Shown: piece after piece, positions 12,822 to 61,483 of the stretch | How positions within the stretch are numbered: position 1 is the first letter of the stretch | Layout of the letters: the number at the start of each line of letters is the position of its first letter | DNA from: Clostridia bacterium | GTDB lineage: Bacteria; Bacillota; Clostridia; RGIG6154 | Length of the DNA stretch: 64,000 bases | Direction: 5' to 3' | NCBI GenBank assembly: GCA_045589295.1 | Contig: JAZNOU010000012.1 | Coordinates: forward strand, 32,001 to 96,000 | Notes under the pieces: model-generated | Database searches by the model: none | What the model saw: the letters and a program-made list of their open reading frames with translations, nothing else | What the model was told of the DNA's origin: nothing | Made by a program: the position numbers and the translations under genes

Positions 12822-13106
12822 TCACTTATATACAATTATAACTTGTTTATTTAAATCTTGATACCATTCAATAGTATCATCGAAGGTTTCCTTGATATAA
12901 GGAAATTCATATGCAGGAATTCTTGGTAGATTATTACTTCCAATAACCGTAATATGAGCAGGTGCTTCCATATGTCCTGTAAGCATATCCCAGATGGCAT
13001 CGGGATTTTCTCCGCACCATTCGGGAAAGTCAAGCCCCTTGATAATTCTTTGATAAAAGGCTGATAAATCTGTCACATTTGTAAAGTCGATAGTGTAATA
13101 ATTCAT
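12822..13106 (-). CDS. Barstar-family RNase inhibitor (immunity protein)
   Basis: LDFPEWCGENPDAIWDMLTG aligns to barstar [20 protein letters not shown]. Confidence 0.92.
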   Translation of the reverse strand: MNYYTIDFTNVTDLSAFYQRIIKGLDFPEWCGENPDAIWDMLTGHMEAPAHITVIGSNNLPRIPAYEFPYIKETFDDTIEWYQDLNKQVIIVYK

Positions 13107-13115
13107 ATTTCCCTC

Positions 13116-13646
13116 CTAAATGATTTCATAAAAAGTGTTATAATGGTCATAGGTTACAAATAAGAGTCCGTCATTTGAATACAAAAGTCTGTGAGTATTT
13201 CTGAACCCACCTATATAATTTATATCCGCTTCATACCACACTCTTCCTGGTTTTTCGGGAAGTTTGTGCTTTCTGTCTCGAAATATGTCTCCGCCCATTG
13301 TTGCCCACGGAAGAACCGATCTTAAATTTCCTTTACGCTTGTCCCAACCGTGTTTTTCCGCATATTTTTTATCCACATAGTTTTTCGGTAATTCTCCATA
13401 CATTTTCAGCGACATATCTGCTCCTGAAAGTCCGTTTATTGTAGCAGTACCGCTATATATAGCGCCAAGAGGTGCTAAAGTGCAGCGACAATTAGGGTGC
13501 AAAGGGGGAGTAAATAAATCGTAAACTGCAAAAATTCTTAAATTAAGTTTAAGACATCTTTCGCATGTGGTAGGTGAAATTTTTACATACCAACAGTTCC
13601 AATTTTCACTTTTGGTTATTGCAGGATTTAGATTGTTATCACCCAA
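13116..13646 (-). CDS. Barnase-family RNase toxin fused to a short MuF (phage head morphogenesis) C-terminal motif
   Basis: TCERC and PPLHPNCRC (MuF signature), then GGDIF..KLPEKPGRVWYEADINY..GFRN.HRLLYSNDG....DHY with barnase catalytic Glu/Arg/Arg/His; no signal peptide; TTG start with AAAGGA RBS. Confidence 0.9.
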   Translation of the reverse strand: MGDNNLNPAITKSENWNCWYVKISPTTCERCLKLNLRIFAVYDLFTPPLHPNCRCTLAPLGAIYSGTATINGLSGADMSLKMYGELPKNYVDKKYAEKHGWDKRKGNLRSVLPWATMGGDIFRDRKHKLPEKPGRVWYEADINYIGGFRNTHRLLYSNDGLLFVTYDHYNTFYEII

Positions 13647-13697
13647 AATAGTATCGTTCCTTTCTTTTTTAAAGTAAATAACGTTATTTTAGGTGTG

Positions 13698-13732
13698 ATT
13701 ATAACATATAGGTAATGTGACATTCAAGGACA
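13698..13732 (-). promoter_or_regulatory. Phage late-type promoter: 20-bp activator box plus extended -10
   Basis: Minus strand TGTCCTTGAATGTCACATTA-CCTATA-TG-T-TATAAT; box identical to 47818-47837. Confidence 0.85.
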
Positions 13733-13874
13733 AGATTTATTTTATACTAATTACAGGTTTGCGTCAAGTAAAGAAAAAAGATTTGCAAGGTTACATGAAT
13801 TGAGCTATAATGTGTGGCAAATGACACGCAGATGATGTGGACAATGTCGGAGCAAACAGGGCTTTGGCTATGAG

Positions 13875-13902
13875 AAATACCCACTCGCAAGAGTGGGTAT
13901 TT
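13875..13902 (-). terminator. Hairpin, probably the original terminator downstream of ssrA
   Basis: AAATACCCACTC-GCAA-GAGTGGGTATTT just outside the att repeat. Confidence 0.6.
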
Positions 13903-13928
13903 TGAATGCAGCGTAGTTTGCTGCGACG

Positions 13929-13940
13929 TGGTGGAGATGA
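13929..13940. repeat. att direct repeat (displaced tmRNA 3' end)
   Basis: TGGTGGAGATGA identical to 25747-25758. Confidence 0.85.
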
Positions 13941-14257
13941 AATGTACTTTCACAGTTTCACTAACAAAACCCGTAAAGCCTATGAAACTCTATGGTGTCG
14001 GACAATTTCTACATACCATTTCACAACAGATTTTGACATCTGTTTCATCCTTCTCTCGACCGCCATTTGGTGTGTGCAAATTTTTTGGATTTTCTGTTGG
14101 TGGAAACCATCGAACACAGAGAGTTTCAAAACTGCATTTTCTTCATCACGAAAGCCATCTCTCTTTTTGCGATGGCTTTGTTTTATTAGTAATGTATATT
14201 AAACCTTTTTAAGATTACACTTAACAAAATAACCTAAAGTAAATCAGTAAATTTGAC

Positions 14258-14301
14258 TTTACATCATGATTTAAATATGATATAATTATAATTAAATCAT
14301 G
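14258..14301 (+). promoter_or_regulatory. Promoter with inverted-repeat operator flanking the -10
   Basis: TTTACA-N17-TATAAT; CATGATTTAA (14265-14274) ... TTAAATCATG (14292-14301). Confidence 0.6.
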
Positions 14302-14325
14302 GAATAAATTAAAAGGAGGATATTT

Positions 14326-14517
14326 ATGAATAAAACTCCATCTCTTTGTGGTCGCCCATCTGGAAGAAAAAAGACTGCTAAAATTGAAGTTGTTATTGAA
14401 CCAGAAATAAAAGAAAAATTTATGAAAATTATTTCAAACGAAGGAAAGACAGCATCGGCTGAAATAGGATGTTGGATTAGAAAATATATCAAAGAAATGA
14501 ATACAGATAATATATGA
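14326..14517 (+). CDS. Small ribbon-helix-helix-like regulator upstream of the MTase
   Basis: KIEVVIEPEIKEKFMKII..EGKTASAEIGCWIRKYI; RBS AAGGAGG. Confidence 0.65.
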   Translation: MNKTPSLCGRPSGRKKTAKIEVVIEPEIKEKFMKIISNEGKTASAEIGCWIRKYIKEMNTDNI

Positions 14518-14558
14518 TATTTAAATTATGTATTTTGTGAAAGAAAAGGAGTTTAGAT

Positions 14559-16151
14559 ATGGATAAAAACCGTTTAACAGGTTCCTATTATACATCACAA
14601 AAGATTGCTCAGTATATGGTTAATTGGGCAATAAGAAGTGCAGATGATTTATTTCTGGAGCCTTCATTTGGCGATGGTGTTTTCATAGATGCTGCATTAA
14701 CTAGATATTCGAATTTGGGAAATAATTCACCGAGTATTATAGGCGTTGAATTGCAACCAACTATTTATTCAAAATATATGGATTTATCTGCTGATGGCAT
14801 TGAAGGATACTGCCAAGATTTTCTGACTTTTACTCCAAACTCAGAAATCACGGCGGCTGTTGGAAACCCTCCGTACGTAAGGCTAAGAAATCTCGATGAA
14901 AATTCTAAAACTATTGCAATAGATTGCACAGCAAAAAATAAAGTAAAGATGCTTACTAGTGGCAGTTTATGGATGCCTTTTACAATTCACAGCACTTCAA
15001 TGTTGGCAAATGGTGGTCGACTCGCTTTTGTTTTACCTTTTGAGCTTACCTATGTTAAATATGCACACTCATTGTGGAGTTTTCTAGGGGAGAACTATGG
15101 GGAACTGAAAATCATACGCATACATGAAGACTTCTTCCCTGATGTAGATGTTGAAACAATCATCTTGCTGGCAGATAATAAGGGTGGCAGTACTTCAACA
15201 ATTGATTTTTTAGTATATGAAAATGTTGATAATATGTTTGCTCAAAATACATCTTTGCAATCACAAATTAATATTTCAGATATAATACATGGTAAAAAAC
15301 CATTTGTATTGTCATTATTGAACACAGAACAACGTGCGATGCTAGAAAATATACGTAATAAGCAAATTGTTACGCCTCTTGTTGATGTTTGCAAATTTAA
15401 TATTGGTTATGTGTGCGCTGATAAGGAGTTTTTTCATCCAACTTCAGCAACACAAATAAGTTTTAATATTCCAAAGGACAATATGATTCCTTGCATTAGC
15501 AATGCTAAAGAAATTAATGGTGGCACAAATATTGGTGCAGTTGTGGAAACAGACAAATGCAAGAGCCGTCTATATTTGCCAAAAGAAATAACCAAATCAG
15601 ATAAAAAGTATATTAAACATGGCGTTGATAAAGGCGTTAATTTACGATACAAATGCCAGCAACGTAGTCCTTGGTATATAACCCCGAATGTTGAAATTCC
15701 AGAACTGATACTAACGGTATTTGGTGATGCCCCAAAATTAATTGCCAATAAGGGCAAATATGCAGTATCTAACAGTTTACTTGCTGGGCGCATTGTTTCT
15801 GAGATTACGGCTGAACAAATCATATGTATGTGGTATAATAGTCTTACTTTGTTATCCATTGAGTTGAATATTCATTCATTGGGCGGAGGTGTATTAGTAC
15901 TTATTCCTGGTGAGACGGACAAATTAGAAATAATAAATAAAATTCCTGATAAATATACCGAAAAAGTATTAAGGCAAATTGACGAATGTATTAAAACGCA
16001 AGGTGTTCAAGCTGCATATGAACTAGGGGATACATTAGTGCTTAAAAATATTCTTGGATTTTCAAATGAGCAAATTAATCAAATTAAAGATGCGGTTTCG
16101 TTGTTGCAATTTTGGAGAAAGCCTGAAATACGGCGTAATAAAAACAGGTGA
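14559..16151 (+). CDS. Type II N6-adenine DNA methyltransferase (gamma class, PaeR7I/XhoI-like size)
   Basis: GSYYT, LEPSFGDGVF (motif I), VGNPPYVR (motif IV). Confidence 0.92.
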   Translation: MDKNRLTGSYYTSQKIAQYMVNWAIRSADDLFLEPSFGDGVFIDAALTRYSNLGNNSPSIIGVELQPTIYSKYMDLSADGIEGYCQDFLTFTPNSEITAAVGNPPYVRLRNLDENSKTIAIDCTAKNKVKMLTSGSLWMPFTIHSTSMLANGGRLAFVLPFELTYVKYAHSLWSFLGENYGELKIIRIHEDFFPDVDVETIILLADNKGGSTSTIDFLVYENVDNMFAQNTSLQSQINISDIIHGKKPFVLSLLNTEQRAMLENIRNKQIVTPLVDVCKFNIGYVCADKEFFHPTSATQISFNIPKDNMIPCISNAKEINGGTNIGAVVETDKCKSRLYLPKEITKSDKKYIKHGVDKGVNLRYKCQQRSPWYITPNVEIPELILTVFGDAPKLIANKGKYAVSNSLLAGRIVSEITAEQIICMWYNSLTLLSIELNIHSLGGGVLVLIPGETDKLEIINKIPDKYTEKVLRQIDECIKTQGVQAAYELGDTLVLKNILGFSNEQINQIKDAVSLLQFWRKPEIRRNKNR

Positions 16152-16171
16152 GTTTACTCACCTGTTTTTAT
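16138..16171. terminator. Bidirectional terminator between MTase and REase
   Basis: ATAAAAACAGGTGAG-TTTA-CTCACCTGTTTTTAT. Confidence 0.8.
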
Positions 16172-16172
16172 A

Positions 16173-16901
16173 TTATCTTTTTTTAATTGGATTGAAAATA
16201 TTTCGATTATTATGGGTATCAATTAACTTATCAAAGAAATTTTGAATCTGCAGAATTTCTTTTGTTGGCAACAATACTGGTGGATTTTGTGTAAAATCAA
16301 CTTTTAAAAATGCAAAATGTTCATATTTATCGTGTGCATCTCTCCAATCAGAACGCCCAGTAATTTTCTCAAAAAGATTTTCTGCTTTATCAAGCTTTAC
16401 CTCTTCAGTTAAACCTGGCTTAATTGGTGCTGTAGGTAACAGGTACACATAACCGATGGTAGCCATTGGAAAACGGTCATGAAGAGAAATACATTCACCA
16501 ATTATACCTTCATAATAGTTTTCAAGATTTTTCGCAACCGAAGACATTTGACTGCGAACGCCTATAATGATTTGAGGACCATTCGCATAATGTGAAAGCA
16601 CAATATCAGCATCTTTATTCTTGTGAGAACCAAACAATGTAGCTTCTTGCATTATTTGAAGACCATTCGTTGCTATATTCACCCTTGGATAATGTGGTAT
16701 GTCCTTTGAGCGAACCATGTCACTTAAAGGGATGTATTGGATATTCACGCTTGGGTCAATAATGTTTTTTAACTGTTCTATGCAGTATTGATGTAATGGA
16801 AAGATAAAATTAGAGCCACGGACTGAAGCTACAGGGTCGTTTAAATAAATCTCCTTCATATTTGTCAAACAATTTATAAGTTCTGTCATGTTAGCGGGCA
16901 T
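16173..16901 (-). CDS. Putative type II restriction endonuclease (PD-(D/E)xK fold, PaeR7I/XhoI-like)
   Basis: Convergent with MTase; KDADIV...IGVRSQMSSVAKNLENYYE..IGE. Confidence 0.7.
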   Translation of the reverse strand: MPANMTELINCLTNMKEIYLNDPVASVRGSNFIFPLHQYCIEQLKNIIDPSVNIQYIPLSDMVRSKDIPHYPRVNIATNGLQIMQEATLFGSHKNKDADIVLSHYANGPQIIIGVRSQMSSVAKNLENYYEGIIGECISLHDRFPMATIGYVYLLPTAPIKPGLTEEVKLDKAENLFEKITGRSDWRDAHDKYEHFAFLKVDFTQNPPVLLPTKEILQIQNFFDKLIDTHNNRNIFNPIKKR

Positions 16902-17051
16902 AATAACACCATCCTTTTTTATTAATTATACCACACATTTACAATTTTTTCTACATTTTGTTGAAATATATATGCTAACACGCTGTTACTAATATAGACA
17001 ATTCTATAAATGAGGATGATATTTACAAAAAATGTTTGACCTATTTGTACA

Positions 17052-18605
17052 TTATGCAGATTTTTTATGTTCCTTTTTATGTTCCGAAGATGTTTTGAGT
17101 GTGATTTCAACTCTGTCATGGTGCACAACAATTTCATCAACAAAGCTACGGATTAGCTTTCTGCACACAAGCAGGTCTTTCTTCAAAAGATATTTTTTAA
17201 ATAACTTCTTAACCTTATCTATCTCATCGGAAGTTACGGTATCAGCTTTATAGTTATTATAGTATTCATATTTATTATTAAGAGCTATCTTCTTATTTTC
17301 AAGCTCTTTGAGTTTATCGGTTAATGACTCTAAATTATCAGATTGTATCAATGCATCAGTTAACTTATTTATAGCAATATCAAGCTGTGTGAGTTCATTT
17401 TTTATAGATTTTTTCTTGTTGATTGACAGAACATTTCTCTTTTCAATTTTCTCATTCAGAGCCTTCAATATCCGTCTGTAATTTTTTTCATCAAATATTA
17501 TATCGAGAAGTAAATCAAGAACAAAATCGTTTAAATACTTAATATTTACCGCTTTATTCTTGCATCCGTCTCTGTACGCACCACATCTGTATGTTGCGTA
17601 TTCTGTCTTGTTTCTTCCTGAAAAACTTGTGTTGCCTGTGTAGGCTTTGCCACACTCTCCGCAGACAATCAAGCCGTTAAGCAGATAGTATCTTTTACTG
17701 TGATATGTACCTGCAATTTCTCTATTGGCTTCTTTCTTAGCTAAAAATTTATTATATGTTTCATCATCAATTATCCTTGGCATACCATCAGGAATTCTAA
17801 TTATCTCGCTATCGTCCTTGTATCTGTGAGAGTTGCGAGTTCCATCATTATATTTTGAAGCGGCTCTGTTATAGATGTATACTCCTGTGTATCTCTCTGC
17901 GTTTTCAAGAATTGAGCTAAAGGAATTTTTATTAAATGGTAATTCCTTCTTGGTGGTATATCCATTTTTATTAAGATAATCCGCTATTTGTTTATATGAG
18001 TAATCATTTATATACATCTGAAAAATGAGTTTAACAACTCTGCTTTCTTTATCATTATTAATATACTTTCTATCCTCGCCTACATCGTAACCATATGGTG
18101 GCAATCCACCAACATGCCAACAGTTGTATGCCGCTTCTTTCTTTCCTTTTTGTACCTCTGTTGCGAGATTTCTGCTAAAGTAATCACTCAGAGAAAACAT
18201 CATGTTTCTTGTAAATACACTTGCAGGCGAAGCATCATTAGGCTCTGTAACACTAATTAACTTAACCCCGAGTTTCTCTAACATACATTCATAAGTATGT
18301 GCATTATTCATGTTTCGTGAAAACCTGTCGAACTTGTGTACTACAACAGCATATATGCCTGCCTTTTTTGCTTCTTTCATCATCTGCTGAAAGGCTTCTC
18401 GGTCATCGGTGGTCGCAGATTTTGCCTCGTCAACAAATTCCTTTTCAATTATGTAGCCTTGCTTTTTGCAAAATTCACGGATGGCTCTGCGTTGGGCATC
18501 AATTGACATTGGATTTTGCATGTTAGACGAGTATCTCATATATATGAAAACTCTTTTTAAAAACCTTCTGTCTGTCGGTCTGTTTTTCTTCTTTTTCTTA
18601 GTCAT
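17052..18605 (-). CDS. Large serine recombinase (Ccr-like) 1
   Basis: YMRYSS..Q, DRFSR, GGLPPYGY, LNGLIVCGECG Zn ribbon, coiled coil. Confidence 0.95.
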   Translation of the reverse strand: MTKKKKKNRPTDRRFLKRVFIYMRYSSNMQNPMSIDAQRRAIREFCKKQGYIIEKEFVDEAKSATTDDREAFQQMMKEAKKAGIYAVVVHKFDRFSRNMNNAHTYECMLEKLGVKLISVTEPNDASPASVFTRNMMFSLSDYFSRNLATEVQKGKKEAAYNCWHVGGLPPYGYDVGEDRKYINNDKESRVVKLIFQMYINDYSYKQIADYLNKNGYTTKKELPFNKNSFSSILENAERYTGVYIYNRAASKYNDGTRNSHRYKDDSEIIRIPDGMPRIIDDETYNKFLAKKEANREIAGTYHSKRYYLLNGLIVCGECGKAYTGNTSFSGRNKTEYATYRCGAYRDGCKNKAVNIKYLNDFVLDLLLDIIFDEKNYRRILKALNEKIEKRNVLSINKKKSIKNELTQLDIAINKLTDALIQSDNLESLTDKLKELENKKIALNNKYEYYNNYKADTVTSDEIDKVKKLFKKYLLKKDLLVCRKLIRSFVDEIVVHHDRVEITLKTSSEHKKEHKKSA

Positions 18606-18780
18606 TTTTTAGTGCCTTCTTTCTGATATGTTTTAATATTCTGTAAATTACGGGAACAGGTGTTTTGAGTTTTAACTTTTCGTCAAAACTGCCTTTAATG
18701 ATTTTGATTTTAACATTTGAATATTCTTCGTTGTATAGACTTTCTCTGTCGATGATATATCTGGCAATCAAGTTTATCAC
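18598..18780 (-). CDS. Small hypothetical protein (possible directionality factor)
   Basis: 60-aa ORF overlapping the recombinase start. Confidence 0.45.
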   Translation of the reverse strand: MINLIARYIIDRESLYNEEYSNVKIKIIKGSFDEKLKLKTPVPVIYRILKHIRKKALKND

Positions 18781-18805
18781 CCCCTTTCTTTGCCTTTTAT
18801 TGATA

Positions 18806-19204
18806 CTATTTAATCTTCACAAACGCTGTCACAATTCCATTGATGCTTTTTACCTTTACATTATCAAACGACATAGATGTTCGTTCGCTAAAATCGAGGC
18901 CGAAAATTACTGTTATGTATTTTACCAAAGCGGCATTATATACAATTCCTTTTCCTTTATTTGATACAGAATACTTGTTGCCTGCTTCATCTATGTCCGC
19001 AGCAATTATCAGGAATCCATTACCGACATCTGCTGCAAGCTTTATAAATTCAGGCTTTCCCAATGCTTCAAACAGGCTCTTGGATAAGGTGAGTCGCTTG
19101 CCATTATCACAGAATACCAATGATACGGATTTTGTTGATTTACCCCCTTTCTCGCTTGATACGTTAATAGCTTTTGCGTTAGCTAAAATTTCTTGTGCTT
19201 TCAT
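18806..19204 (-). CDS. Hypothetical protein
   Basis: 132-aa ORF with RBS GAAAGGAAG, in operon between helicase and recombinase. Confidence 0.65.
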   Translation of the reverse strand: MKAQEILANAKAINVSSEKGGKSTKSVSLVFCDNGKRLTLSKSLFEALGKPEFIKLAADVGNGFLIIAADIDEAGNKYSVSNKGKGIVYNAALVKYITVIFGLDFSERTSMSFDNVKVKSINGIVTAFVKIK

Positions 19205-19252
19205 AGCACAACACTTCCTTTCATTTTATATTTTAAATAATAATGATATTAT

Positions 19253-20677
19253 TTAATTAACAAATACATCATTGCCATCGTCTGTGTATGGTAAATTTAA
19301 TTTGCAATAGGTTGTGCAACCTAAAGGTCTGTATTTCTTTAAAGAAATATTCATCGTTCGTCTGTTTCCATTAGACTTTTTTGTAATCATACCCTGTCCT
19401 GTCTTTTTTATAAAAATCAGATTGAACTCCATCCAAAATTTAGTGGTTGAAATATGAGCATATTTAATATGATTATTAGCTTTACACCAATTTATAAATG
19501 CCTGATAAACTGCACTCCTTGTTTCCCATATGGATTTATCTTCCGACACCTTGAAATAAATACACTCATTCCAAAATGCTTCAAATGGATTGGACATAGT
19601 TATATACTGATTTTTCAGTTTCTCTATCTTTTCCGAGTCAGTAAATCTGAAATCATTGGAATTAAGCCTGTTAAAACCTTTTATCGCCAAATTAAAAATT
19701 CCTGGCAACTCTTTCTTTAACTTTTCTTCCAGATGAATATCAGCTGTTCCGTCTTTAATAGAGAATTGTTTTTCAAAAGGAACGATGATAATTCGGCGGA
19801 AAAATCCGTCAGAAATATCTTTAAACTGCGGTAGTGTATTGGTGCTGAATATCAGCTTACAGAATGGTTTGAATGAAAAAACATCTTTACCTTTAAACTC
19901 TGCCGATATAGCATCACCGCCTGTGATAGCCTTTATATATTGTGTATCAGTAACCTGTCCGTTGTAGCTTTCGTTTTCAGTAGATATATTAACTAATTTA
20001 TCCAATAAAACCGATTTATTAAATCTCTTTGCAAAATCCCTTATTGGTACAGTAGAACAATTATCTTCGCCGACTAATGCCATAATCAAATTGCACAGTA
20101 CAGATTTTCCGTTTGCTCCCGTTCCGAAAAACAAGAAGAAGCATTGTGCTGAATTATTCCTTGTCATTATATATCCCATCAACTCCTGAATGACTTTCAT
20201 TATCTCTCTGTCATCATCAAATATGCTTTTTAAAAATTTGATAAATTGAGGACATTTTGCCTTTTTATCATATTTAATCGGGAGCTGTACAGTGCAATAA
20301 TATTCAGGGCTATGCGGAATAAGCTTGTTAGTCTCCAAATCATACATTCCATTTTTCAGGCAAATCAAGTTTTGGTATTTGTTGAATTCACCGCCATAAA
20401 ATGCAATTCTTTTCAGTGCAGTAAAATAGTACTCCTCTGCTCTTTTGTTAAATGAATTCGGATATGATGTGGAAAGAATCAGTTTCGCCATAATCGCTTT
20501 TAAGCGTTCTTCTGAAATCGGCTTATATGCTCCGTGACGATACATATAATATTTACCGTTATCTGCATAAATAATATTGTACTTCCTATGTACATACAAT
20601 GCGAATAAATTACTGTCAAGATAAACCCCATCATCACCTGTTTCTCTGAAGCCCATTTCTTGTTCATTGTTCTTCAT
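19253..20677 (-). CDS. P4/D5-family SF3 helicase (D5_N plus ATPase; no evident primase domain)
   Basis: LICLKNGMYDL, CPQFIKFL, Walker A GTGANGKS, IKAITGGD, GFFRRIIIVPF. Confidence 0.9.
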   Translation of the reverse strand: MKNNEQEMGFRETGDDGVYLDSNLFALYVHRKYNIIYADNGKYYMYRHGAYKPISEERLKAIMAKLILSTSYPNSFNKRAEEYYFTALKRIAFYGGEFNKYQNLICLKNGMYDLETNKLIPHSPEYYCTVQLPIKYDKKAKCPQFIKFLKSIFDDDREIMKVIQELMGYIMTRNNSAQCFFLFFGTGANGKSVLCNLIMALVGEDNCSTVPIRDFAKRFNKSVLLDKLVNISTENESYNGQVTDTQYIKAITGGDAISAEFKGKDVFSFKPFCKLIFSTNTLPQFKDISDGFFRRIIIVPFEKQFSIKDGTADIHLEEKLKKELPGIFNLAIKGFNRLNSNDFRFTDSEKIEKLKNQYITMSNPFEAFWNECIYFKVSEDKSIWETRSAVYQAFINWCKANNHIKYAHISTTKFWMEFNLIFIKKTGQGMITKKSNGNRRTMNISLKKYRPLGCTTYCKLNLPYTDDGNDVFVN

Positions 20678-20687
20678 AATAACCTCC

Positions 20688-21438: not shown

Positions 21439-21481
21439 ATTTTTGAAATTAGTAATCATTCAAATATATATCATATTATTG

Positions 21482-47722: not shown

Positions 47723-47740
47723 AAGTTTTTATAATATGGT

Positions 47741-53270: not shown

Positions 53271-53287
53271 TATCTTTGGATTTAATT

Positions 53288-53770
53288 ATGCTATCTGAAA
53301 ATCTAGCGGCATTTATGGAAATTGATGGTAAGTTTTATAAAATGCAAGGTTTTTCAAAGCTGGATATTCTTTCTGTGCCTGAGGTTTATGCAAGAAAATA
53401 CATAAACAACGACTTTAAAAGTGTAACAGTTACTGGCGGTGACACAAAAATTTCATACGCTTTTGACAGAATGAAAAATTTTAAGGTTCATGACGTTTTA
53501 TCACGTATTGCAGACCTTAATTTGAGCGGTGACGAGGCGACAGTAAAAATTGTTTTGGTCGATTTTGACAATGAACAAGACGGAAAGTTTTATGCTATTA
53601 AGCAAAGCTTTGCAGTTGTGTGCAAAGATGTTCGGCCTGAGGATGGTTTTTTAGATTATTTTGGTATGTTTATTTCTTCGGGTAAGGCATCAGAGGGGGC
53701 TGTTACCTCCTGTGATGGTTTTGAAACTGCTGATTTTACAGAGAAAAGGAGGGGAATATTATGCGATTGA
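53288..53770 (+). CDS. Major tail tube protein-like
   Basis: AAFME..FYKMQGFSKL..PEVYARKYI..ISYAFD; start uncertain (53267 or 53288). Confidence 0.65.
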   Translation: MLSENLAAFMEIDGKFYKMQGFSKLDILSVPEVYARKYINNDFKSVTVTGGDTKISYAFDRMKNFKVHDVLSRIADLNLSGDEATVKIVLVDFDNEQDGKFYAIKQSFAVVCKDVRPEDGFLDYFGMFISSGKASEGAVTSCDGFETADFTEKRRGILCD

Positions 53771-54600
53771 TTTTTGAAAGCGACGGCAAAAAACTTGAAA
53801 TGGGTGACGATTGCGACGCCTCTGTTATTGAAATCTCGGGGCTTGGTACGCCTGAAAGGCAATACAACACCAAAAGGTATGTAAATATTCCAGGACAGGT
53901 TACTGTTTCTTCGCACGTGCTTGCAAGAAATATTGTAATTAAGGGTGATATATGTTTAAACGGAGGGTTGCCGACAGAAAAATATCACACTTTTTTCTGT
54001 CAAAGCGGAATGCTTACCATAACAGGAAAAGATAAAAAGAACATTAATTACAATCCTGTTTCTTTTAAGACGGGCAATAGAAATGGCGAGTTTGTTTCTT
54101 TTGAGCTTAAATTAGTTTGCGATTTTCCTTACTTTTCTGACGGCAATGACATTCCGTATGAGATATACAAAAGATTAGATATGGTAACAGGTAAGTTTAG
54201 TTTACCTAAAGTTTTTACCAAAAGAGTTACTGAGGTGGATATCTACAATTCGGGACAGGCAGACTCTGAACCTGTTATAACCATTGGATGTACAAATCAG
54301 GGTATTTACTCAGGCGGCATTGTGATTTACAATGCGCTTACAAAAAAAGAACTTAAGCTGGATACCAATCTTTCTTTAGGTGAAACGATTACAATTGATA
54401 TAAAAAACAGAAAAATCTCGAGTAATAAGAGAGCAAACTGCTACGGAATTTTAAATGAGAATTGTGTTTTGTCTGATTTTGTGATTGCAAGGGGAATAAA
54501 TCATATTTTACTTACAAACTTAAACGACGGAGAAACAGTTACAGCATCAATTTTGTTTAATAATTTATATGCGGAGGCGGAGATTGTTGAAAGAAATTAA
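53761..54600 (+). CDS. Distal tail protein (Dit)
   Basis: ISGLG, ARNIVIKG, LVCDFPYF, IYNSG, GINHI. Confidence 0.85.
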   Translation: MRLIFESDGKKLEMGDDCDASVIEISGLGTPERQYNTKRYVNIPGQVTVSSHVLARNIVIKGDICLNGGLPTEKYHTFFCQSGMLTITGKDKKNINYNPVSFKTGNRNGEFVSFELKLVCDFPYFSDGNDIPYEIYKRLDMVTGKFSLPKVFTKRVTEVDIYNSGQADSEPVITIGCTNQGIYSGGIVIYNALTKKELKLDTNLSLGETITIDIKNRKISSNKRANCYGILNENCVLSDFVIARGINHILLTNLNDGETVTASILFNNLYAEAEIVERN

Positions 54601-55726
54601 AATTTATGATTTTGACTTTAACCTGATTGCTTCCGAGTTTAAGTGCGTTTCATTTAAGTGGGATGTAAGATTTAATTCAATTGGCGGCTTCGAGGGGGTA
54701 TTTACCCTTGATTCTGACATTTATTCTACGTGTGCAAACAAGGATTTTTTGGTTTGCGTTCAAGGCGAAAATCAGGGAATTGTAACCTCTGTGAGAATTG
54801 AAAACGACCAGATTATAATTAGCGGGAAGTCTTTAAACTTTTTGCTTGAAAAAAGGGTTTGTCTACCTTTTTCAACTAAAGATAGCGGTATTTTAAAATC
54901 TGCTCCCGAGCTTGTGTGCGAGTTGGTTTTAAAGTATTGCGGTGATTTTATGGAGGTTTTAAGTGCACCACAAGGATACGATAAATCGCATTTTACCAGG
55001 ATTGAAGCAAAGCCTCTTTGCGAGATTGTAACAGATTTGCTAAGCGGTGTTAATCTTGGACATTTTGTTAAGTTTGACATAAAAAACAAAAAGTGGATAT
55101 TTGGCATAATAGAGCCTGAAGTAAAAAACATTGTGCTTTCAGAACCTGACAAAACCCTTTCTGATTGCGATTATGTAAGATATTTGTCAGACTATGCTGC
55201 GTCAGGCGTTTATCAGCAAAAAGTATATTATCAGGGCTTGTGGAATGCTGAGACAAACACTCCTTTTTTGTGGGACAATGAAAAACCCAATTTTGCAAAA
55301 GCTTACAAGGTGGAAGAGGCCGGTCAGATGTTTGGCATAAGTTTTGACAAGGGTGATTACATTATTTGCAAGGATGAAAGCGGTAAGTGGCAAAAAAGTG
55401 CAGATTGCTTACCTTTTTGGTACAAGGTTACACCTAAAAACGCAAATGGAGCTAAACTTTGGGAGTGCGCTTTATCCTGCGATGATATTTCAGAGGCTTA
55501 CGAATTGACACTTTTAAGAGAAATAAGCGAAAATGTGGTAGCACTTACCGAGGGTGAGGTTAAAAACGAGTTTAAAGTGGGCGATATAATAAAAATTCAG
55601 CTTGGCAGAGGCGATGCTCTAAAGGTTTTTACAAAGCAGGTTAAAAGAATGGTGCATCACAGCGACGCTGAGGAAAGTTTTGTAAGACCTACATTCTATA
55701 AGTTAAAGGAGAGGGAAGATGAGTAA
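54587..55726 (+). CDS. Baseplate hub / Gp37-like tail protein
   Basis: IKIYDFDFN, FNSIGGFE, ISGKSLNFLLEKRV, FKVGDII; after Dit. Confidence 0.75.
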   Translation: MKEIKIYDFDFNLIASEFKCVSFKWDVRFNSIGGFEGVFTLDSDIYSTCANKDFLVCVQGENQGIVTSVRIENDQIIISGKSLNFLLEKRVCLPFSTKDSGILKSAPELVCELVLKYCGDFMEVLSAPQGYDKSHFTRIEAKPLCEIVTDLLSGVNLGHFVKFDIKNKKWIFGIIEPEVKNIVLSEPDKTLSDCDYVRYLSDYAASGVYQQKVYYQGLWNAETNTPFLWDNEKPNFAKAYKVEEAGQMFGISFDKGDYIICKDESGKWQKSADCLPFWYKVTPKNANGAKLWECALSCDDISEAYELTLLREISENVVALTEGEVKNEFKVGDIIKIQLGRGDALKVFTKQVKRMVHHSDAEESFVRPTFYKLKEREDE

Positions 55727-56573
55727 TTATAAATATACTTTTTTTGATAATCAGACGGTTGGCGTTGACCATTTGAACGAAATTACAAAGAGGCTTGTGT
55801 CAGGGGGGATTTCTGCAGTTTACAGCGGAGTAGATTTTAATGTTGCAGACATTAATGATAACAATAAGGCGATTTTAACAGGCGGTGTTGTACCTGGAAA
55901 TGATTTGAATTTAAAGGTAACGGCGGTAGGAAGCGGAAAGTACCTTATAAATCAGGGACTTTGCTTTTTTAACAACGGCACTACTATGGAGATTTTATCG
56001 GGCGGAGAAGAAATTGTTGTACCGCAAGGGGTAACAAGCTACATTTATTTGGTGTCCGACAGCAATAAAATGGCGTGTTATGTCGAAGTTTTGCAAAGTG
56101 AAAAGCAGACGGGTGAATTTATTCTTCTGGCTGTTATAAATGTTGACGGGACAGTTGTCGATAAACGCACCTATGCGAAAGGTAAAGTTCCCGGGTTTTA
56201 TGCGTCTTCCGAGAGCATGCAGGTAAATATTACCCAAAAATATGAGGGAGAAAAAAATATAGAAATTTCGGTTGGTATGGGCAATTTTAAGCATCTTTGT
56301 ATCAGGGCAGAGTCAGGCGCTTTTCATAATGGTTCTGGGTATAACATTAATTACGGGGGACTTTTTTATTGTGATTTTGAAAACTCAGTTGCGGTAAATC
56401 CTTCTATGTGTTCCGTGCTTGCAGGCGATAGTTATATTTATTATGACAGAAACATTGGCTCCTGCCGTCTTGGGTCTAATATTAGATTGGAAAACGGAAA
56501 GCTCATTATACCTGTGATAGAGGGTAATGTAAATAAGGGGTATGAAGTACGGTTTTCATATCATTTATGGTAA
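55719..56573 (+). CDS. Baseplate structural protein
   Basis: FFDNQ, GV, LKVTA..G, G.CFFNNG; position. Confidence 0.65.
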   Translation: MSNYKYTFFDNQTVGVDHLNEITKRLVSGGISAVYSGVDFNVADINDNNKAILTGGVVPGNDLNLKVTAVGSGKYLINQGLCFFNNGTTMEILSGGEEIVVPQGVTSYIYLVSDSNKMACYVEVLQSEKQTGEFILLAVINVDGTVVDKRTYAKGKVPGFYASSESMQVNITQKYEGEKNIEISVGMGNFKHLCIRAESGAFHNGSGYNINYGGLFYCDFENSVAVNPSMCSVLAGDSYIYYDRNIGSCRLGSNIRLENGKLIIPVIEGNVNKGYEVRFSYHLW

Positions 56574-56585
56574 GGAGGAGTTTAG

Positions 56586-59411
56586 ATGAAGAGAAAAATT
56601 ATTCCAAAACAAAAATATACAACCTATGCTTCGTTTCCGCTTGTGTCTGGCGACGTAAGGGCATACGAGATAGAGCTTGATTTAGGTGAAAATGTTTCGG
56701 GGGCGGAGTTTAAGGTAGTTGCAATCCGCGCTGACGGCAAGGCTATTGAGGATTTGGGAACAGTTGAAAACGGAATCGCAAGATATACTTTATCAAACAG
56801 TATGTACGCCGTACAGGGTGAGCTTACTGTAAGATTGCAGATACTTCATAATTCAAGTGTTTTAACTGATAGGGAAATTATTTTTGAGGTTAAAAAAGGT
56901 GCGACTGATACTACAGCGGCACAAACTGTTATGCCTCTTAACGACAGTGTGATTTTAAGAGTTTCTGCATTTGAAGATAAGCTTTTAAGCAAGGTTGACA
57001 AACAAGCGGGCATGGGACTTTCGACAAATGATTTTTCGGACCAGTACAAGCAAAAACTTGATAACTTAGATGAAACTATGGGAGCAGAAATAGAGCAAAT
57101 ATCAGAAACGATTGATAATTTGTCAGATAGTTTTGATGAACACACAAAAGACAAAGCAAACCCCCACAATGTTACGGCGCAGCAGGTTGGTGCATATTCA
57201 AAATCTGAAACAGATAACAAGCTTTATAAAAAAGCGGATAAATCAGATATTTCTAATATATACTCATATCAAGGCTCAGTTGATACTTTTGAGGATATTG
57301 AGTGTATCAGCATAACGCTTGTCCCCAATGGCGAGCCTACTTGCAAAGGACAAGTATGCGGGTCGTTTAATGAAGATGATGGGTGTGTGACTATCGATGA
57401 GATAGCAGAAGAAGATTTTGATACAATTATTATTCCAATAAAAGAGGTAACGCTTAAAAAGGGGTATTATGCTATATCAAGCGAGCTGAGAGATGGTATG
57501 TATAAGTCAGGAATTGCAATTGATATTTACCAAATGGATGAATTTAATGTGCAGGAAGGATATGTTTTCAAAGTCGAAAATGACACGGTTATAAATCTGG
57601 CTCATATATTCAGACATAGTGATTCACTATTTGGTGGTTGCACAGGAGATGTTGTATGCACACTTACCAAAATGCCAAATATACTTGTAGATGAATCCAG
57701 CTATAACGAACAATATGGAACTTGTGAAGCGTATGGCATTTCTCCGTCAAACGGCTCAGTATACAACGTCTTAGACACGGGTATAAACTATGCTTGGAAT
57801 GGTACTGAATGGGACGCTTTAGGCGGTGAGCATAAGGATTTAGAGGCTAGAGAAGAAATTAAAAAACTGTCTGATAGTTTGGACTGTATTGATATTAGTG
57901 ATAATAACATTTCGTTTAACAGAGATAAAAACACAGTCGGCATAATAAAAGAGATTGGTAGTTTCACCTGTACTGCGATTGATGAAAGTACAAACAAATA
58001 CACCTTTGATGTTGCTGACACGTCAGTTTTTGTTTCATACACCGAGTACAAGGTTACGGTAGATGATACTGACTATCTTATAAGGTCAACAACAATAAAC
58101 GAAGATAACGTTGTGTTTGAAGCGGTTGATGATGCAGTTCCTTTTGAGGTTGGAAATACATACAACATAAGATTTGAGACAAAAAATGCAACCTCTTTTG
58201 GTGTGGATAATACAGTTTTGGCAAATGAGGGCTTTGCAACAGGTATGGCTAATTTCATTGATGAAACTGGCGACCAAGGTGTTGCTCACGGATACGGCAA
58301 TAAGCTCTCAGGAAAGGCACATTTTGTTGCAGGTTCATCAAATGATGTTTCAGAAGGCAGTACTGATACAATATTTGGCAGTAACAACATTGTCAAAGGC
58401 AGTAACAAACTTGTTGCAGGTCTAAACCTGCTTGCGGAATTAACTGCTTCGGGAAGTGCTGTATTAGGAAAATACAACATTGATGTAAAAGATGCTTTGC
58501 TTATAGTTGGTATCGGATATGATAAAAACCACAGACAAAATGCTTTGGTTATGGACAAAAACGGCAATATTGTAGCTTATGGTACTCTTACTGTGGATAA
58601 TAATGTAAGTATTAACGGAGAGCTAAATGTTTGCAATAAAGCTGTTATGTCTAAGGGGTTAGAGGTTAACGGTGAAACTACGATTGATGGCAGTACAAAT
58701 ATTAAAGGAGCAATGGCATATAAAGAGTCTGAGGTTGTGAACCTAGAAATGTTATCCAAACATACAGGTATCGATATTGGCAGAAAAGGTGCAGGTTATA
58801 TGTCTGTCGTGTTTAATCACGACGGTAATGAAGGAAGCGGGTATGCTTCGTTTACTGCAGGCACAAGTAACAAAACAACTGCAGGACAGGCAGCAACCTT
58901 TGGGCACGCAAATGAAAATAGCGGTTTTTCTGCTTTTACTGCAGGCTCGGGCAATATAACTACAAAAGACCAAGGTGCTACGTTTGGCTATTCAAATGAA
59001 AATCACGGATGGGCTTCTTTCATAGCCGGTGCTTTTAACAAAATAAAAGGAGCTTTTAACGCCTGTATTGCTTTAGGTAGGGATATATTAATAAATGCAG
59101 ATAACGCTATTGGTATTGGAAGAGGACTTAATGTTGATAAGGCTAACCAAGTAGTTGTTGGTGCATATAACAAGTCTGATAATGAATCTGTGTTTATAGC
59201 AGGCTGTGGTACGGATGATAAAAACCGCAAGAACGCAATAACTGTAAGAGAATCTGACGGACGTACCAAAATCCATAATGGGCTTGATGTAGAAGGTTTA
59301 ATAAACGGTGTGGATTTACAAGAACTTAAAACGCAAATGGGTGACATTAACACTGCACTTGAAGCCATTATCGAAATTGACAATAAACTGATTGGCGGTG
59401 ATGGTGAATGA
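56586..59411 (+). CDS. BppU-like N-terminus plus tail fibre/receptor-binding protein with YadA-like head repeats
   Basis: KVDKQAGMGLSTNDF, NPHNVTAQQVG, WDALGG, repeated SFTAG.N/ATFG.N, V.GxYN...GxG..RxNA. Confidence 0.8.
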   Translation: MKRKIIPKQKYTTYASFPLVSGDVRAYEIELDLGENVSGAEFKVVAIRADGKAIEDLGTVENGIARYTLSNSMYAVQGELTVRLQILHNSSVLTDREIIFEVKKGATDTTAAQTVMPLNDSVILRVSAFEDKLLSKVDKQAGMGLSTNDFSDQYKQKLDNLDETMGAEIEQISETIDNLSDSFDEHTKDKANPHNVTAQQVGAYSKSETDNKLYKKADKSDISNIYSYQGSVDTFEDIECISITLVPNGEPTCKGQVCGSFNEDDGCVTIDEIAEEDFDTIIIPIKEVTLKKGYYAISSELRDGMYKSGIAIDIYQMDEFNVQEGYVFKVENDTVINLAHIFRHSDSLFGGCTGDVVCTLTKMPNILVDESSYNEQYGTCEAYGISPSNGSVYNVLDTGINYAWNGTEWDALGGEHKDLEAREEIKKLSDSLDCIDISDNNISFNRDKNTVGIIKEIGSFTCTAIDESTNKYTFDVADTSVFVSYTEYKVTVDDTDYLIRSTTINEDNVVFEAVDDAVPFEVGNTYNIRFETKNATSFGVDNTVLANEGFATGMANFIDETGDQGVAHGYGNKLSGKAHFVAGSSNDVSEGSTDTIFGSNNIVKGSNKLVAGLNLLAELTASGSAVLGKYNIDVKDALLIVGIGYDKNHRQNALVMDKNGNIVAYGTLTVDNNVSINGELNVCNKAVMSKGLEVNGETTIDGSTNIKGAMAYKESEVVNLEMLSKHTGIDIGRKGAGYMSVVFNHDGNEGSGYASFTAGTSNKTTAGQAATFGHANENSGFSAFTAGSGNITTKDQGATFGYSNENHGWASFIAGAFNKIKGAFNACIALGRDILINADNAIGIGRGLNVDKANQVVVGAYNKSDNESVFIAGCGTDDKNRKNAITVRESDGRTKIHNGLDVEGLINGVDLQELKTQMGDINTALEAIIEIDNKLIGGDGE

Positions 59412-60571
59412 GTAACAGTATAGAGCAAAACCTTGTGACTATTGCTGAAAACCGACAAAAGATTTATGATGCAGGGAGAAATGCCGTTATAAACGAACTG
59501 AAGGAACTGCAAAAAGGCACTGCAAATGGTGAAGTTGTTGCCATTTCTGATATATCACCTATCCCACATAATATTGATGTTAAAGTATCAAGCAAAAATA
59601 TAGTTAATGCTGATGTTTTATGTGGCAAACAATTTACTAAAAATGATGATGGAAGTTATACCTTTACTATGGGTAGTGGCGGTAATAGATTTACTGCAAT
59701 GGCTAATATATTTATTCCAAAAGGCTCAAAAGTTGTGTTTTCTATAACTGGTTTTGAGAGTGATAATATTGCTTTGGTTGGTATTCAAACACTTTATGCT
59801 AATGGCACTTATTTAAGTAGTTATGATGTAAAGCCTGGATATTTATCAAACAAAGCAATTAAAACAGAAGATGATATAGTAGGCTTGCGCTTATATCTTA
59901 ATCAAGGCACTGCTGAAGGAGCAACAGTAAAACTAACTGGTATTCAATTGGAATATGGCACAGTAGCAACCGCTTATACACCTTATGTAGATGTAAGCAC
60001 AGTTAAGTTAGATGCTCTTGGGAAAAATCTGTGGGATGCAGACTTAAATAAAATAGCACCAGTGCAATATACATCTGCGACAAGCGGTGGAATGGCAAAA
60101 AGAAATGGTTGGGAAATGGAATTGGTTGCAGGTGTTACATACACAGTAAAAGCAACACCAAAAGAAAGCAGTTTTACAGAAAGTTATTTGTACGGATGTG
60201 TAACTGATAAGGATGATAAAGTTAAAAAGACTACACCTTTAGTAGCAAATCAACAGTTACAAACTCACACATTTACAGCAGAAGATGGTTGGAAATTAAA
60301 GCTGTATGACGGGATTGCGCAAAACGGACTTACAGATACTAAGACAATGGTGTCAAAATTTAATATTCAGCTTGAAATCGGTGAAAAAGCAACACCTTAT
60401 GAACCACATATCCAGCCTGTAACATATATACCGAATGCAGACGGAGCTATAGAGGGGGTAAAGAGTGTTTGCCCTAATATGACTCTTTTAACTAATACTG
60501 AAGGAGTAATGATTGAGTGCAACTATAAGAAAGACATAAACCCGATTTTTGATAAATATGTGAGAGATTAG
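59408..60571 (+). CDS. Tail-associated protein with duplicated carbohydrate-binding-like modules
   Basis: Two KNL/KNI...QLExG.xAT.Y.P modules. Confidence 0.7.
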   Translation: MSNSIEQNLVTIAENRQKIYDAGRNAVINELKELQKGTANGEVVAISDISPIPHNIDVKVSSKNIVNADVLCGKQFTKNDDGSYTFTMGSGGNRFTAMANIFIPKGSKVVFSITGFESDNIALVGIQTLYANGTYLSSYDVKPGYLSNKAIKTEDDIVGLRLYLNQGTAEGATVKLTGIQLEYGTVATAYTPYVDVSTVKLDALGKNLWDADLNKIAPVQYTSATSGGMAKRNGWEMELVAGVTYTVKATPKESSFTESYLYGCVTDKDDKVKKTTPLVANQQLQTHTFTAEDGWKLKLYDGIAQNGLTDTKTMVSKFNIQLEIGEKATPYEPHIQPVTYIPNADGAIEGVKSVCPNMTLLTNTEGVMIECNYKKDINPIFDKYVRD

Positions 60572-60581
60572 GAGTGATTTT

Positions 60582-61283
60582 ATGAGAATCTGTGTAGATG
60601 CAGGGCATAATTATGATGGGTTTGACACAGGAGCAATTGGCAACGGCTTAAAAGAACAGAATGTTACATTTGAAATTGCAGACAAACTTAAAACCCTTTT
60701 AACCAAAGAAGGTATCGGCGTTACAATGACAAGAGCAAAACTTACTGACAATGTTGGGGTTAATGCAAAAGACAGCATAAATCAAAGGGTGAGAATTGCC
60801 AATACTACAAGATGCGACTATTTTATATCAATTCACTGTAATTCAAGCACAAACAAAGGTGCAAACGGAACCGAAACGCTTATCTACGGGTTTGGTGGAC
60901 AAGCTGAGAGAATAGCAAAAGCGGTAAATGCGAGTATTGTATCAGAGTTAGGTACTTATGACAGAGGTGTTAAAGTAAGAACTGATTTGGGCGTTTTAAG
61001 GGATACTTCAATGCCTGCAATTTTGGTTGAAACGGCTTTTATTTCAAATGAGAAAGATGCTAAACTTTTAAAAGAAAAAACAGATGATTTTGCACAAGCA
61101 ATTTTTGAGGGGATTTTAGAGCATTTGGACAAGAAAGAAGAAGTTGATATCATTGAAAGACTTTCAGAAATTATTGAAATTAATGATAAAACAACTGCAA
61201 AGGCTCAGCTTTTGAAAGAAAAAGAAAAAAATTCAAGTCTGTATTGGATTTTATACAAAATTGCAAACAAGGAGGGGACATAA
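60582..61283 (+). CDS. N-acetylmuramoyl-L-alanine amidase (Amidase_3 endolysin)
   Basis: DAGH, LKE, ISIHCN, ILVETAFISN. Confidence 0.93.
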   Translation: MRICVDAGHNYDGFDTGAIGNGLKEQNVTFEIADKLKTLLTKEGIGVTMTRAKLTDNVGVNAKDSINQRVRIANTTRCDYFISIHCNSSTNKGANGTETLIYGFGGQAERIAKAVNASIVSELGTYDRGVKVRTDLGVLRDTSMPAILVETAFISNEKDAKLLKEKTDDFAQAIFEGILEHLDKKEEVDIIERLSEIIEINDKTTAKAQLLKEKEKNSSLYWILYKIANKEGT

Positions 61284-61483
61284 TGGATGTTGGTCAGATT
61301 ACTGATATGATAATGAATCAGGGGATATGGTGTGCACTTTTCTGCTATCTTTTTTATAGCGTGCGAAAAGAATCAAAAGATGACAAAGCACAGCTTATGG
61401 AACTTTTAAGTCTGCAGAGCGAAAAGCTTTCGGAGATAACCGCGGCACTTGAAAATCTTTCTAATAAAATAAAATCAAATTAA
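61283..61483 (+). CDS. BhlA/UviB-family holin
   Basis: QGIWCALFCYLFYSVRKES; RBS AAGGAGG. Confidence 0.85.
   Translation: MDVGQITDMIMNQGIWCALFCYLFYSVRKESKDDKAQLMELLSLQSEKLSEITAALENLSNKIKSN

Follow-up and report, generated by a model that had tools for sequence, protein, structure and literature searches.

What unites three separate phage-derived loci in one bacterial chromosome, and what keeps them there? This study examined a 64,000-nucleotide stretch of DNA from an uncultured Clostridia bacterium (G000:C12:32001-96000, hereafter the window), in which an initial annotation had recognized a regulatory switch (locus a), a head-tail-lysis operon (locus b), and a cassette encoding a MuF-motif barnase toxin and its barstar (locus c), and had proposed that the three form one host-maintained particle system. 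Family scans recovered all three loci where they had been placed. The source genome (G000; 1.54 Mb, 97% complete) and its relatives, which are metagenome-assembled genomes (MAGs) of uncultured Clostridia from goat, deer, and human gut, constitute a GTDB order comprising a single family; we compared 18 species genomes from six genera, the window's genus being designated g1. The results make it likely that the loci belong to a vertically inherited, phage-derived particle system of the gene transfer agent (GTA) or PBSX type, with a dispersed regulon, in this small order of gut Clostridia.

Distribution, synteny, and selection across the order

The large terminase subunit (TerL), the portal, and the major capsid protein (MCP) each gave a single strong match in 14 of the 18 genomes, representing five of the six genera and a single-copy operon; the operon was found in none of the four genomes (72-96% complete) of the remaining genus. 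The switch cassette was present in all 14 operon-bearing genomes and, as such, was likewise not found in those four. The operon and the switch thus co-occurred in 14 of 14 cases.

Gene order was collinear in all 12 loci mapped. In the eight loci whose flanks were also mapped, the neighboring genes had orthologues at other places in the G000 genome and were taken as chromosomal core; no integrase, excision, or replication genes were noticed in these flanks, whose open reading frames (ORFs) were not scanned for families. As in GTAs, the operon is, within that limit, a structural cluster unable to replicate or excise alone. Its position was kept within genera: next to holA in g1, between the same flanks in both g5 genomes, and likewise in the g4 genomes. 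One shared operon neighbor links g1 with g6. No reliable empty site was found among the contigs of four other metagenomes aligned to the operon; two large skips (16395 and 13542 bases) were considered as empty sites and dismissed as repeats or other organisms, their sides being only 21-22 letters long.

The ratio of nonsynonymous to synonymous substitution rates (dN/dS) was 0.04-0.31 for operon and switch genes when G000 was compared with G002 and G003, and 0.04-0.44 in g4 and g5 pairs, which is similar to the flanking core genes (holA 0.078, comEC 0.092, and hydF 0.089), and all of these values are rough because dS was mostly saturated, at 0.5 to above 2. In a tree of TerL and the portal, every genus was monophyletic with a Shimodaira-Hasegawa-like approximate likelihood ratio test (SH-aLRT) support of 100. 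These findings indicate vertical inheritance with purifying selection within the host clade, with deep nodes that are poorly resolved or incongruent. The term "host-maintained" therefore withstood the tests of co-occurrence, synteny within genera between core-gene flanks, and purifying selection.

The promoter box and the switch locus

The initial annotation had linked the operon and the toxin cassette through one promoter box, and the analysis revealed a stronger link than it had claimed. The 20-bp box TGTCCTTGAATGTCACATTA occurs exactly in both promoters, with 0 of 100 shuffles matching, and in both copies it is followed by 9 nt and then TATAAT, so that the geometry is identical and both promoters correspond to TTGAAT-18-TATAAT with TG. 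Within the box, TGTC-N6-TGTCA forms the core, located 14 nt before TG-TATAAT. Scanning the whole G000 genome yielded exactly three sites with both box and -10 element; the third (G000:C12:2793-2812, two mismatches) precedes a frameshifted barnase and barstar outside the window. The box was upstream of terS in all 14 operon-bearing genomes, and the family-wide scan identified 21 sites in 13 of the 18 genomes and none for the reversed pattern.

Every free-standing barnase cassette was boxed (two sites each in G000 and G002, and one in G007). In both g5 genomes, the box precedes a lysis cassette of an Amidase_2-SLH protein and a holin at a separate locus; in G015 it precedes a leucine-rich repeat (LRR) protein beside pheT, and in G008 a gene with a Lin1244_N (replisome-organizer-like) domain. 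The box hence marks a dispersed regulon made up of the operon and the barnase/barstar cassettes, joined in one other genus by a lysis cassette; with the separate switch locus, this places the genes over several loci under apparent common control, as in GTAs. Contig G008:C27 (L145) carries a 17.5-kb perfect inverted self-duplication, probably an assembly artefact, with the box and the Lin1244_N gene at each end. A relaxed scan of five genomes gave several sites that were set aside as apparent chance matches; only the site on G015:C56 repeated the genome's own operon box.

The box 15-mer was also found in 116 viral contigs, nine of which have a -10 element at the right spacing. In six of these nine phage contigs, the ORF of a homologue of the switch regulator, a late activator of the Ltr type, ends at the box, and HNH, TerS, or TerL genes follow. 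In the window, the ltr gene and terS are 11 kb apart.

The switch lies between murT and hydF, as had been described. The initial description had omitted a 53-aa Zn-ribbon ORF, for which no PHROG match was found and which is the first gene of the predicted activator operon (Table 1). Two identical 17-bp palindromic putative operators were identified, one inside the promoter spacer (35873-35889) and the other 23 bp downstream of it (35913-35929), and a TGAAT-N5/6-ATTCA palindrome within a TTGACA/TATAAT-type promoter was detected in nine of the ten genomes in which the region was captured. The small ImmA-like protein, a putative protease, scored 28.7 bits against Peptidase_M78 (cut-off 22), in a match that spans only positions 21-58 of 123, and its size was 67-89 aa in all five operon-bearing genera.

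The regulator had been called ArpU-like, which did not hold: in an NCBIfam scan (E up to 0.1), the matches listed were all to sigma-70 models and all weak, and ArpU TIGR01637 was not among them. Among 13 orthologues, seven matched DUF1492 (best 7.8e-6), seven Sigma70_r4_2, and six Sigma70_r4 (2.1e-6), and a PDB search matched region 4 of SigF (E 0.0064); the window's own copy gave no Pfam match to DUF1492, Sigma70_r4, or Sigma70_r4_2. By these family matches, the regulator appears to be of the Ltr type (DUF1492/sigma-70 region 4), not ArpU proper. The Cys-rich Zn-finger protein has 22 invariant columns, eight of them Cys, in 13 orthologues; in Pfam it matched nothing more specific than generic zinc ribbons, and it gave no PDB match. 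Its C-terminal half is present in 182 viral stretches; among the 80 loci retained from these, an Ltr-profile match was located downstream in one and the box in none. One viral contig (L300, 4929-5855) encodes a full-length homologue (49% identity), and the ORF immediately after it, of 186 aa, looks by eye like sigma-70 region 2.

Gene content of the three loci and reduction of the operon

The features of the three loci are listed in Table 1. G+C content was unremarkable, without anomaly.

Table 1. Features of the three loci, with positions in the window and the predicted function of each product
Locus	Feature	Position	Strand	Match or detail
c	Palindromic terminator-like hairpin 3' of barstar	12779-12807
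c	Barstar-family immunity gene, 94 aa	12822-13106	-	Pfam Barstar 5e-16
c	MuF-motif barnase, 176 aa	13116-13646	-	C-terminal barnase-type RNase, Pfam Ribonuclease 2.9e-10
c	Late-type promoter, barnase	13698-13732	-	Box 13713-13732, 9 nt, TATAAT 13698-13703
a	Switch flanks, MurT and HydF	33709-35055; 36836-38014
a	Mini ImmA-like metalloprotease, 67 aa	35184-35387	-	HEMAH; Peptidase_M78 1.3e-6; phrog_20936 1.1e-9
a	Xre/RstR-type repressor, 119 aa	35398-35757	-	HTH_3 2.8e-15; NF041951 RstR 1.1e-21
a	Switch promoter with two operators	35868-35929	+	TTGACA-17-TATAAT
a	Zn-ribbon ORF, 53 aa	35943-36104	+	First gene of activator operon
a	Cys-rich Zn-finger protein, about 95-101 aa	36079-36384	+
a	Ltr-type late activator, 136 aa	36395-36805	+	Sigma-70 region-4-like C-terminus; phrog_36 9.6e-9
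b	Terminator hairpin insulating operon promoter	47741-47760	+
b	Late-type operon promoter	47818-47852	+	Box 47818-47837, 9 nt, TATAAT 47847-47852
b	Mini-TerS, 59 aa	47878-48057	+	C-terminal third of Terminase_2 small subunit
b	Large terminase (TerL)	48058-49251	+	Terminase_3 1.6e-40 and Terminase_3C
b	Portal	49255-50532	+	phrog_533 1.3e-91; SPP1_portal 3e-14
b	Scaffold, 142 aa	50542-50970	+	Phage_scaffold 5.2e-16
b	Major capsid protein, P22-coat type	50973-52082	+	PF11651 5.7e-46
b	Head-tail adaptor	52104-52436	+	phrog_541 1.2e-16
b	DUF6751 connector-region protein	52493-52795	+
b	Tail completion protein	52881-53270	+	phrog_3266 1.7e-12
b	Tail tube protein	53267-53770	+	Family profile vs PDB 11ok_A "Phage tail tube protein", E 9e-15
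b	Distal tail protein (Dit)	53761-54600	+	phrog_33 1.1e-11
b	Tal-like minor tail protein	54569-55726	+	Sipho_Gp37 4.2e-14
b	Conserved tail-module protein, no family	55719-56573	+	Orthologues in all genera
b	Tail fibre, 941 aa, strain-variable	56586-59411	+	Tail-fibre PHROGs
b	Second fibre-like protein	59408-60571	+	phrog_4492 5.1e-5
b	Amidase_3 endolysin	60582-61283	+	2.5e-47
b	BhlA-type holin	61244-61483	+	6.5e-7

The operon was correctly placed between holA and rpsO, and all 16 of its ORFs are open in G000; it had also been called intact, which the gene content does not support. We compared it with a siphophage in a genome of another family, to which its TerL and portal are 60% and 55% identical, respectively. 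The siphophage encodes a 175-aa small terminase subunit (TerS) of the Terminase_2 family and a tape measure of 1544 aa, and its portal gene is followed by one for a minor capsid protein of 518 aa. The mini-TerS of the operon, only a C-terminal piece, aligns to residues 112-168 of the 175-aa phage protein (E 2e-6) and is 59-61 aa long in 12 orthologues; about 47 strong clusters, all of 57-100 aa and followed by a sharp drop, form a closed family. In the family element, the portal abuts the scaffold, the minor capsid gene having been lost. The scaffold measures 131-151 aa in the family; in four phages with homologous coat proteins, the ORF directly upstream of the coat gene measures 180-233 aa, and it matches the scaffold in two of the four.

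A tape measure of 350-499 aa and a Gp15-type chaperone are encoded in four genera (nine genomes examined), and both are missing in all four g1 genomes; searching G000 with the family's own chaperone and tape measure gave no match (best E 0.086). In the window, Dit overlaps the tube gene, which leaves no room for either. The siphophage tail module (tube, chaperone, tape measure, Dit, and Tal) is therefore incomplete in g1. A 1691-aa tape measure (PF10145) on contig C5 of G000 was rejected as a part of the system: it lacks the box, and searches of five relatives did not recover it. The island that surrounds it (G000:C5:152000-175000; L290 and L291) is a strain-specific remnant with an HNH endonuclease, DNA-binding proteins, and a tyrosine integrase, in which no capsid or terminase was found; G000 gave no match to the other terminase and capsid types PF03354 and PF05065.

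Segments of the fibre genes at 56153-56581 and 59529-60094 are swapped for unrelated sequences of similar length in contigs from other samples, a cassette-like variation that affects the presumed receptor-binding parts of both fibres. Just upstream of the operon promoter, a 576-bp module (47186-47763) lies between two copies of one terminator hairpin and contains genes for a 74-aa RstR-like helix-turn-helix (HTH) protein (-) and a 96-aa ORF (+); it is strain-variable, since G002 does not have it and contigs from two further metagenomes pass over it (joint 47186>47763). No terminator-like site was found between the holin and rpsO (61483-61915; the first, at 61892-61915, follows rpsO), so late transcription may enter rpsO.

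For the toxin cassette, the barnase N-terminus displays CxxC...HPNCxC, the terminal motif of MuF/SPP1-gp7 proteins. Residues 19-57 (to 60) align with the last ~40 positions of Phage_Mu_F (PF04233; E 8.6e-4, 20.5 bits, under the 29.6 cut-off); the match to TIGR01641 SPP1 gp7 (1.8e-6, 28.3 bits) is also under its cut-off of 39.65, and phrog_115, a minor head protein, matches the N-terminus at 1.1e-7. Residues W18, C27, C30, P47, H49, C52, and C54 are invariant across seven homologues. The RNase and barstar domains of the initial assignment were thus recovered; a MuF domain above the family threshold was not, and only its C-terminal ~40 positions are recognizable.

The cassette is accessory, being full length in four of the 18 genomes and fragmentary in two (G001 and G003). 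A second barnase and barstar in G000, the frameshifted pair at the third box, lie 29 kb upstream of the window. In G008, barnase and barstar are within the operon, between the endolysin and the holin; in G002, they are directly beside hydF and the switch, so the switch and toxin loci may once have adjoined. The boxed barnase of G007 (L151, G007:C70:33519-37022) is followed by two barstar paralogues of 112 and 108 aa. A metagenomic protein of 311 aa (P0121) joins a short-form MuF-motif barnase in frame to barstar, as either a fusion or a missed stop. Another protein (P0122, 313 aa) was rejected as a full-length MuF-barnase: it aligns only at residues 143-313, and its first 140 residues are an apparent spurious ORF extension.

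Beside the barnase, an island (13750-20700) that resembles a small integrative element or satellite encodes an Eco57I-type methylase (14559-16151), a large serine recombinase (17052-18605), and a D5_N/DUF5906 primase-like protein (19253-20677). A second island (8615-12700) contains a small resolvase (8615-9202) and a series of short minus-strand ORFs, and a 27-codon piece of a gene earlier called GGGtGRT lies at 12607-12690, convergent with barstar. At 2990-8539, the window encodes an 1849-aa surface-type protein with CUB, BspA-type LRR, Big_2, and cadherin-like domains. In a second Clostridia family (f10; L146 and L147), a TerL 34-37% identical to that of the operon was detected in 10 of the 12 genomes sampled; in the two loci fetched, TerL is adjacent to a portal gene, and the pair abuts core genes in G127. 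The f10 genes are possibly another domesticated element.

Competing readings and comparison with known systems

On the basis of these findings, a vertically inherited particle system could operate as follows. An Xre repressor on the palindromic operators would hold off the three-gene operon of the Zn-ribbon, Zn-finger, and Ltr proteins, and the conserved mini ImmA-like protease, the likely anti-repressor, would relieve this repression. The Ltr protein, through its sigma-70 region-4-like DNA-binding end, would then act at TGTC-N6-TGTCA promoters; from these, transcription of the head-tail-lysis operon and of the MuF-motif barnase/barstar cassettes would start, as would, in other genera, that of the separate lysis cassette and a putative fibre locus. 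The terminase with its N-terminally reduced TerS would fill capsids without sequence preference, and the holin and amidase would release the particles. The absence of the N-terminal part of TerS suggests that packaging is probably not element-specific and that host DNA is the likely content; the truncation is only a hint of such packaging, and the missing tape measure of g1 calls for caution regarding any DNA delivery to recipients.

Several points weigh against this interpretation. The particle system is known here from genes alone, in organisms represented by MAGs only, and among the RNA sequencing runs searched for the stretch or the operon, none was listed as containing it, although at least part of the operon was present in the data of ten studies. 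The chromosomal position of the operon differs between genera. The branching order among genera has poor resolution and agrees only in part with the PNPase tree: at the deep nodes, the element tree joins g4 and g6 (98) and the single-gene PNPase tree joins g5 and g6 (89). The saturation of dS makes the selection estimates rough, and the 84% mean column identity of the MCP is weak evidence of conservation because proteins that NCBI names from several distant Clostridium species share 68% identity. Possible defects were observed in two genomes, namely an in-frame TGA near the 5' end of terL in G006 and a TAA inside the Zn-finger match in G013. The tube gene of g1 shows 54% and 41% identity with dN/dS of 0.31 and 0.25, compared with 85-90% and 0.06 in the tape-measure-bearing genera; given this fast evolution and the loss of tape measure and chaperone, the g1 tail may be impaired or remodelled. 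Binding of the box by the Ltr protein is suggested only by the adjacency of regulator and box, and the boxed promoters are decent sigma-A promoters by themselves, so the box could equally be a repressor operator.

The main rival reading, possible but on balance unlikely, is that the same domesticated particle serves as a weapon, either a PBSX-like killer or a toxin-delivery device, with variable fibres that target competitors. DNA would only pressurize the head, and the barnase, released by lysis or carried in the head, would kill barstar-free cells. The barnase/barstar cassettes are always late-boxed or in the lysis module, the fibre genes are swapped between strains, and g1 has lost the tape measure, which siphophages require for DNA delivery; all three observations agree with a weapon. 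However, the terminase and portal are selected as strongly as core genes, and the system lacks a sheath or any other machinery for contractile killing. Moreover, a full-length barnase is present in only four of the 18 genomes, so the persistence of the operon in the remaining ten cannot be put down to barnase killing. The same alternative was raised by the authors of a report on FpGTA, a GTA-like element discussed below (PMC12946183, in the parts available). The sequence cannot separate a weapon from a GTA.

A more speculative combination, which we regard as improbable, is a kin-restricted GTA, in which the truncated MuF motif would anchor the barnase at the portal, a small number of RNase molecules would be ejected with host DNA, kin with barstar would survive and retain that DNA, and non-kin would be killed; the particle of g1, once long-tailed, would be on its way to a podovirus-like form that has no tape measure. 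If this were true, a single Ltr box would couple gene sharing, self-lysis, and kin discrimination.

It is very improbable that the loci are ordinary prophage leftovers, that is, three unrelated fragments whose box was inherited from the late promoters of one phage and has no present function. The missing tape measure and chaperone in the window's genus, the frameshifted second barnase, the toxin fragments in G001 and G003, and the other phage debris on contig C5 accord with decay. Nevertheless, all 16 ORFs are open, 12 loci are collinear, dN/dS is far below 1 in three genera, the nucleotide sequences of the box and the operators are conserved across genera, and the operon and switch co-occur in all 14 operon-bearing genomes. 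Least probable of all is a mobile satellite or minimal temperate phage whose genus pattern reflects host-specific lineages instead of vertical descent: the varying chromosomal position, the disagreement with PNPase at deep nodes, the phage of another family whose TerL and portal are closely related, and the satellite-like island with a serine recombinase and D5-type primase beside the barnase cassette favor it, but inspection of the mapped flanks (ORFs not family-scanned) brought up no gene for an integrase, an excisionase, or replication, no reliable empty-site contig was found for an operon that is single-copy per genome, head-gene dS resembles that of neighboring core genes, and the mini-TerS is confined to this lineage.

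If the loci form a domesticated particle system, as we favor, they matter for several reasons. Few GTA-like systems are known, and outside Alphaproteobacteria the gene sets are mostly unidentified. The window offers a complete testable circuit, comprising putative repressor operators, a candidate anti-repressor, an Ltr activator, a promoter box, and a regulon. The natural reduction series, in which TerS was cut to a third, the minor capsid protein was lost, and the tape measure was shortened and then lost, would illustrate how a siphophage becomes a host tool, and the box and the mini-TerS provide simple search handles for more such elements in metagenomes. In the literature that we searched on GTAs in Clostridia or Bacillota and on MuF toxins, this element, its box, and a GTA-linked MuF toxin were not described.

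PBSX of Bacillus subtilis is a host-kept defective prophage controlled by an Xre repressor and a sigma-like late factor; it packages random host DNA in small heads, is released by lysis, and forms one contiguous ~28-kb element with a contractile tail. The system in the window resembles it as a host-kept phage derivative with predicted Xre repressor control. It differs in its dispersed parts, in a tail that derives from a siphophage, and in a putative activator of about 125-136 aa that is only region-4-like. RcGTA comprises a ~14-kb head-tail cluster without replication genes and further loci, has a non-specific terminase, and places dispersed promoters under one activator, its regulation being wired into host two-component and quorum systems. 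The head-tail cluster without replication genes, the dispersed loci, and vertical inheritance are shared, whereas the proteins are unrelated, the phylum is different, and a phage-type Xre/ImmA/Ltr switch has been retained here.

ImmR/ImmA of ICEBs1 and the Xre/M78 pairs of phages consist of an HTH repressor beside an HExxH protease, with operators in the divergent promoter region. The putative protease here, by contrast, measures 67-89 aa, roughly half the length of the Pfam domain (123 positions), and keeps this size across five genera. Ltr proteins of the Sigma70_r4 (LtrA) and DUF1492 (LtrB) families activate terS promoters, according to the available parts of PMC3753634. The late operons of Gram-positive siphophages controlled by RinA, ArpU, LtrA, or LtrB (PMC3753634) are similar in that an LtrA/LtrB-type regulator is accompanied by a box upstream of terS; here, however, ltr is in a separate conserved cassette, and toxin and lysis cassettes at unlinked sites are preceded by the box as well.

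In temperate phages of Firmicutes, MuF polymorphic toxins are described (PMC5576092) as a MuF N-terminus and a C-terminal toxin followed by a small immunity gene, with MuF/gp7 binding the portal and sitting in the capsid; the word barnase does not occur in the main text of that paper. The cassette in the window shares a C-terminal Ribonuclease domain with Barstar directly downstream. It differs in retaining only the last ~40 MuF residues, in a sub-threshold match, and in that the gene is not between portal and scaffold.

The most pertinent precedent is FpGTA, a two-locus GTA-like element of Faecalibacterium prausnitzii that was published in 2026 and makes particles (PMC12946183, on which this comparison draws through the parts available). 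Its packaging and head proteins (TerL, portal, scaffold, MCP, and a TerS that has no DNA-binding domain) are encoded in an operon of ~10.5 kb, and the genes for tail, fibre, and lysis are at a second locus; the element is near-ubiquitous in the genus, and the tail is short or absent (PMC12946183). The same source outlines general features of alphaproteobacterial GTAs, including RcGTA, and reports a TerS without the DNA-binding part as a loss seen in GTAs; in this respect, the losses of the operon follow the reported GTA pattern (PMC12946183).

Both elements occur in gut Clostridia, have a reduced TerS, and combine a packaging/head operon with a further locus. The hosts are of different orders, and the two elements are likened by description and not by sequence. 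A profile search with the mini-TerS returned no named Faecalibacterium protein, and indeed no named organism, among its matches; a search for FpGTA-like capsids returned only P22-coat phage clusters, and the MCP search was filled by relatives of at least 63% identity. Four genera here keep the tube, chaperone, and short tape measure, and no promoter, regulator gene, or toxin cassette was found described for FpGTA in the parts of its report available (PMC12946183). The kind of element is thus already known through FpGTA, against which any claim of novelty for the present system must be set (PMC12946183). According to the same parts of that report, GTA-like packaging was also observed in other gut Clostridia, with no gene cluster named, and the box and gene families described here might help to find the gene sets behind it (PMC12946183).

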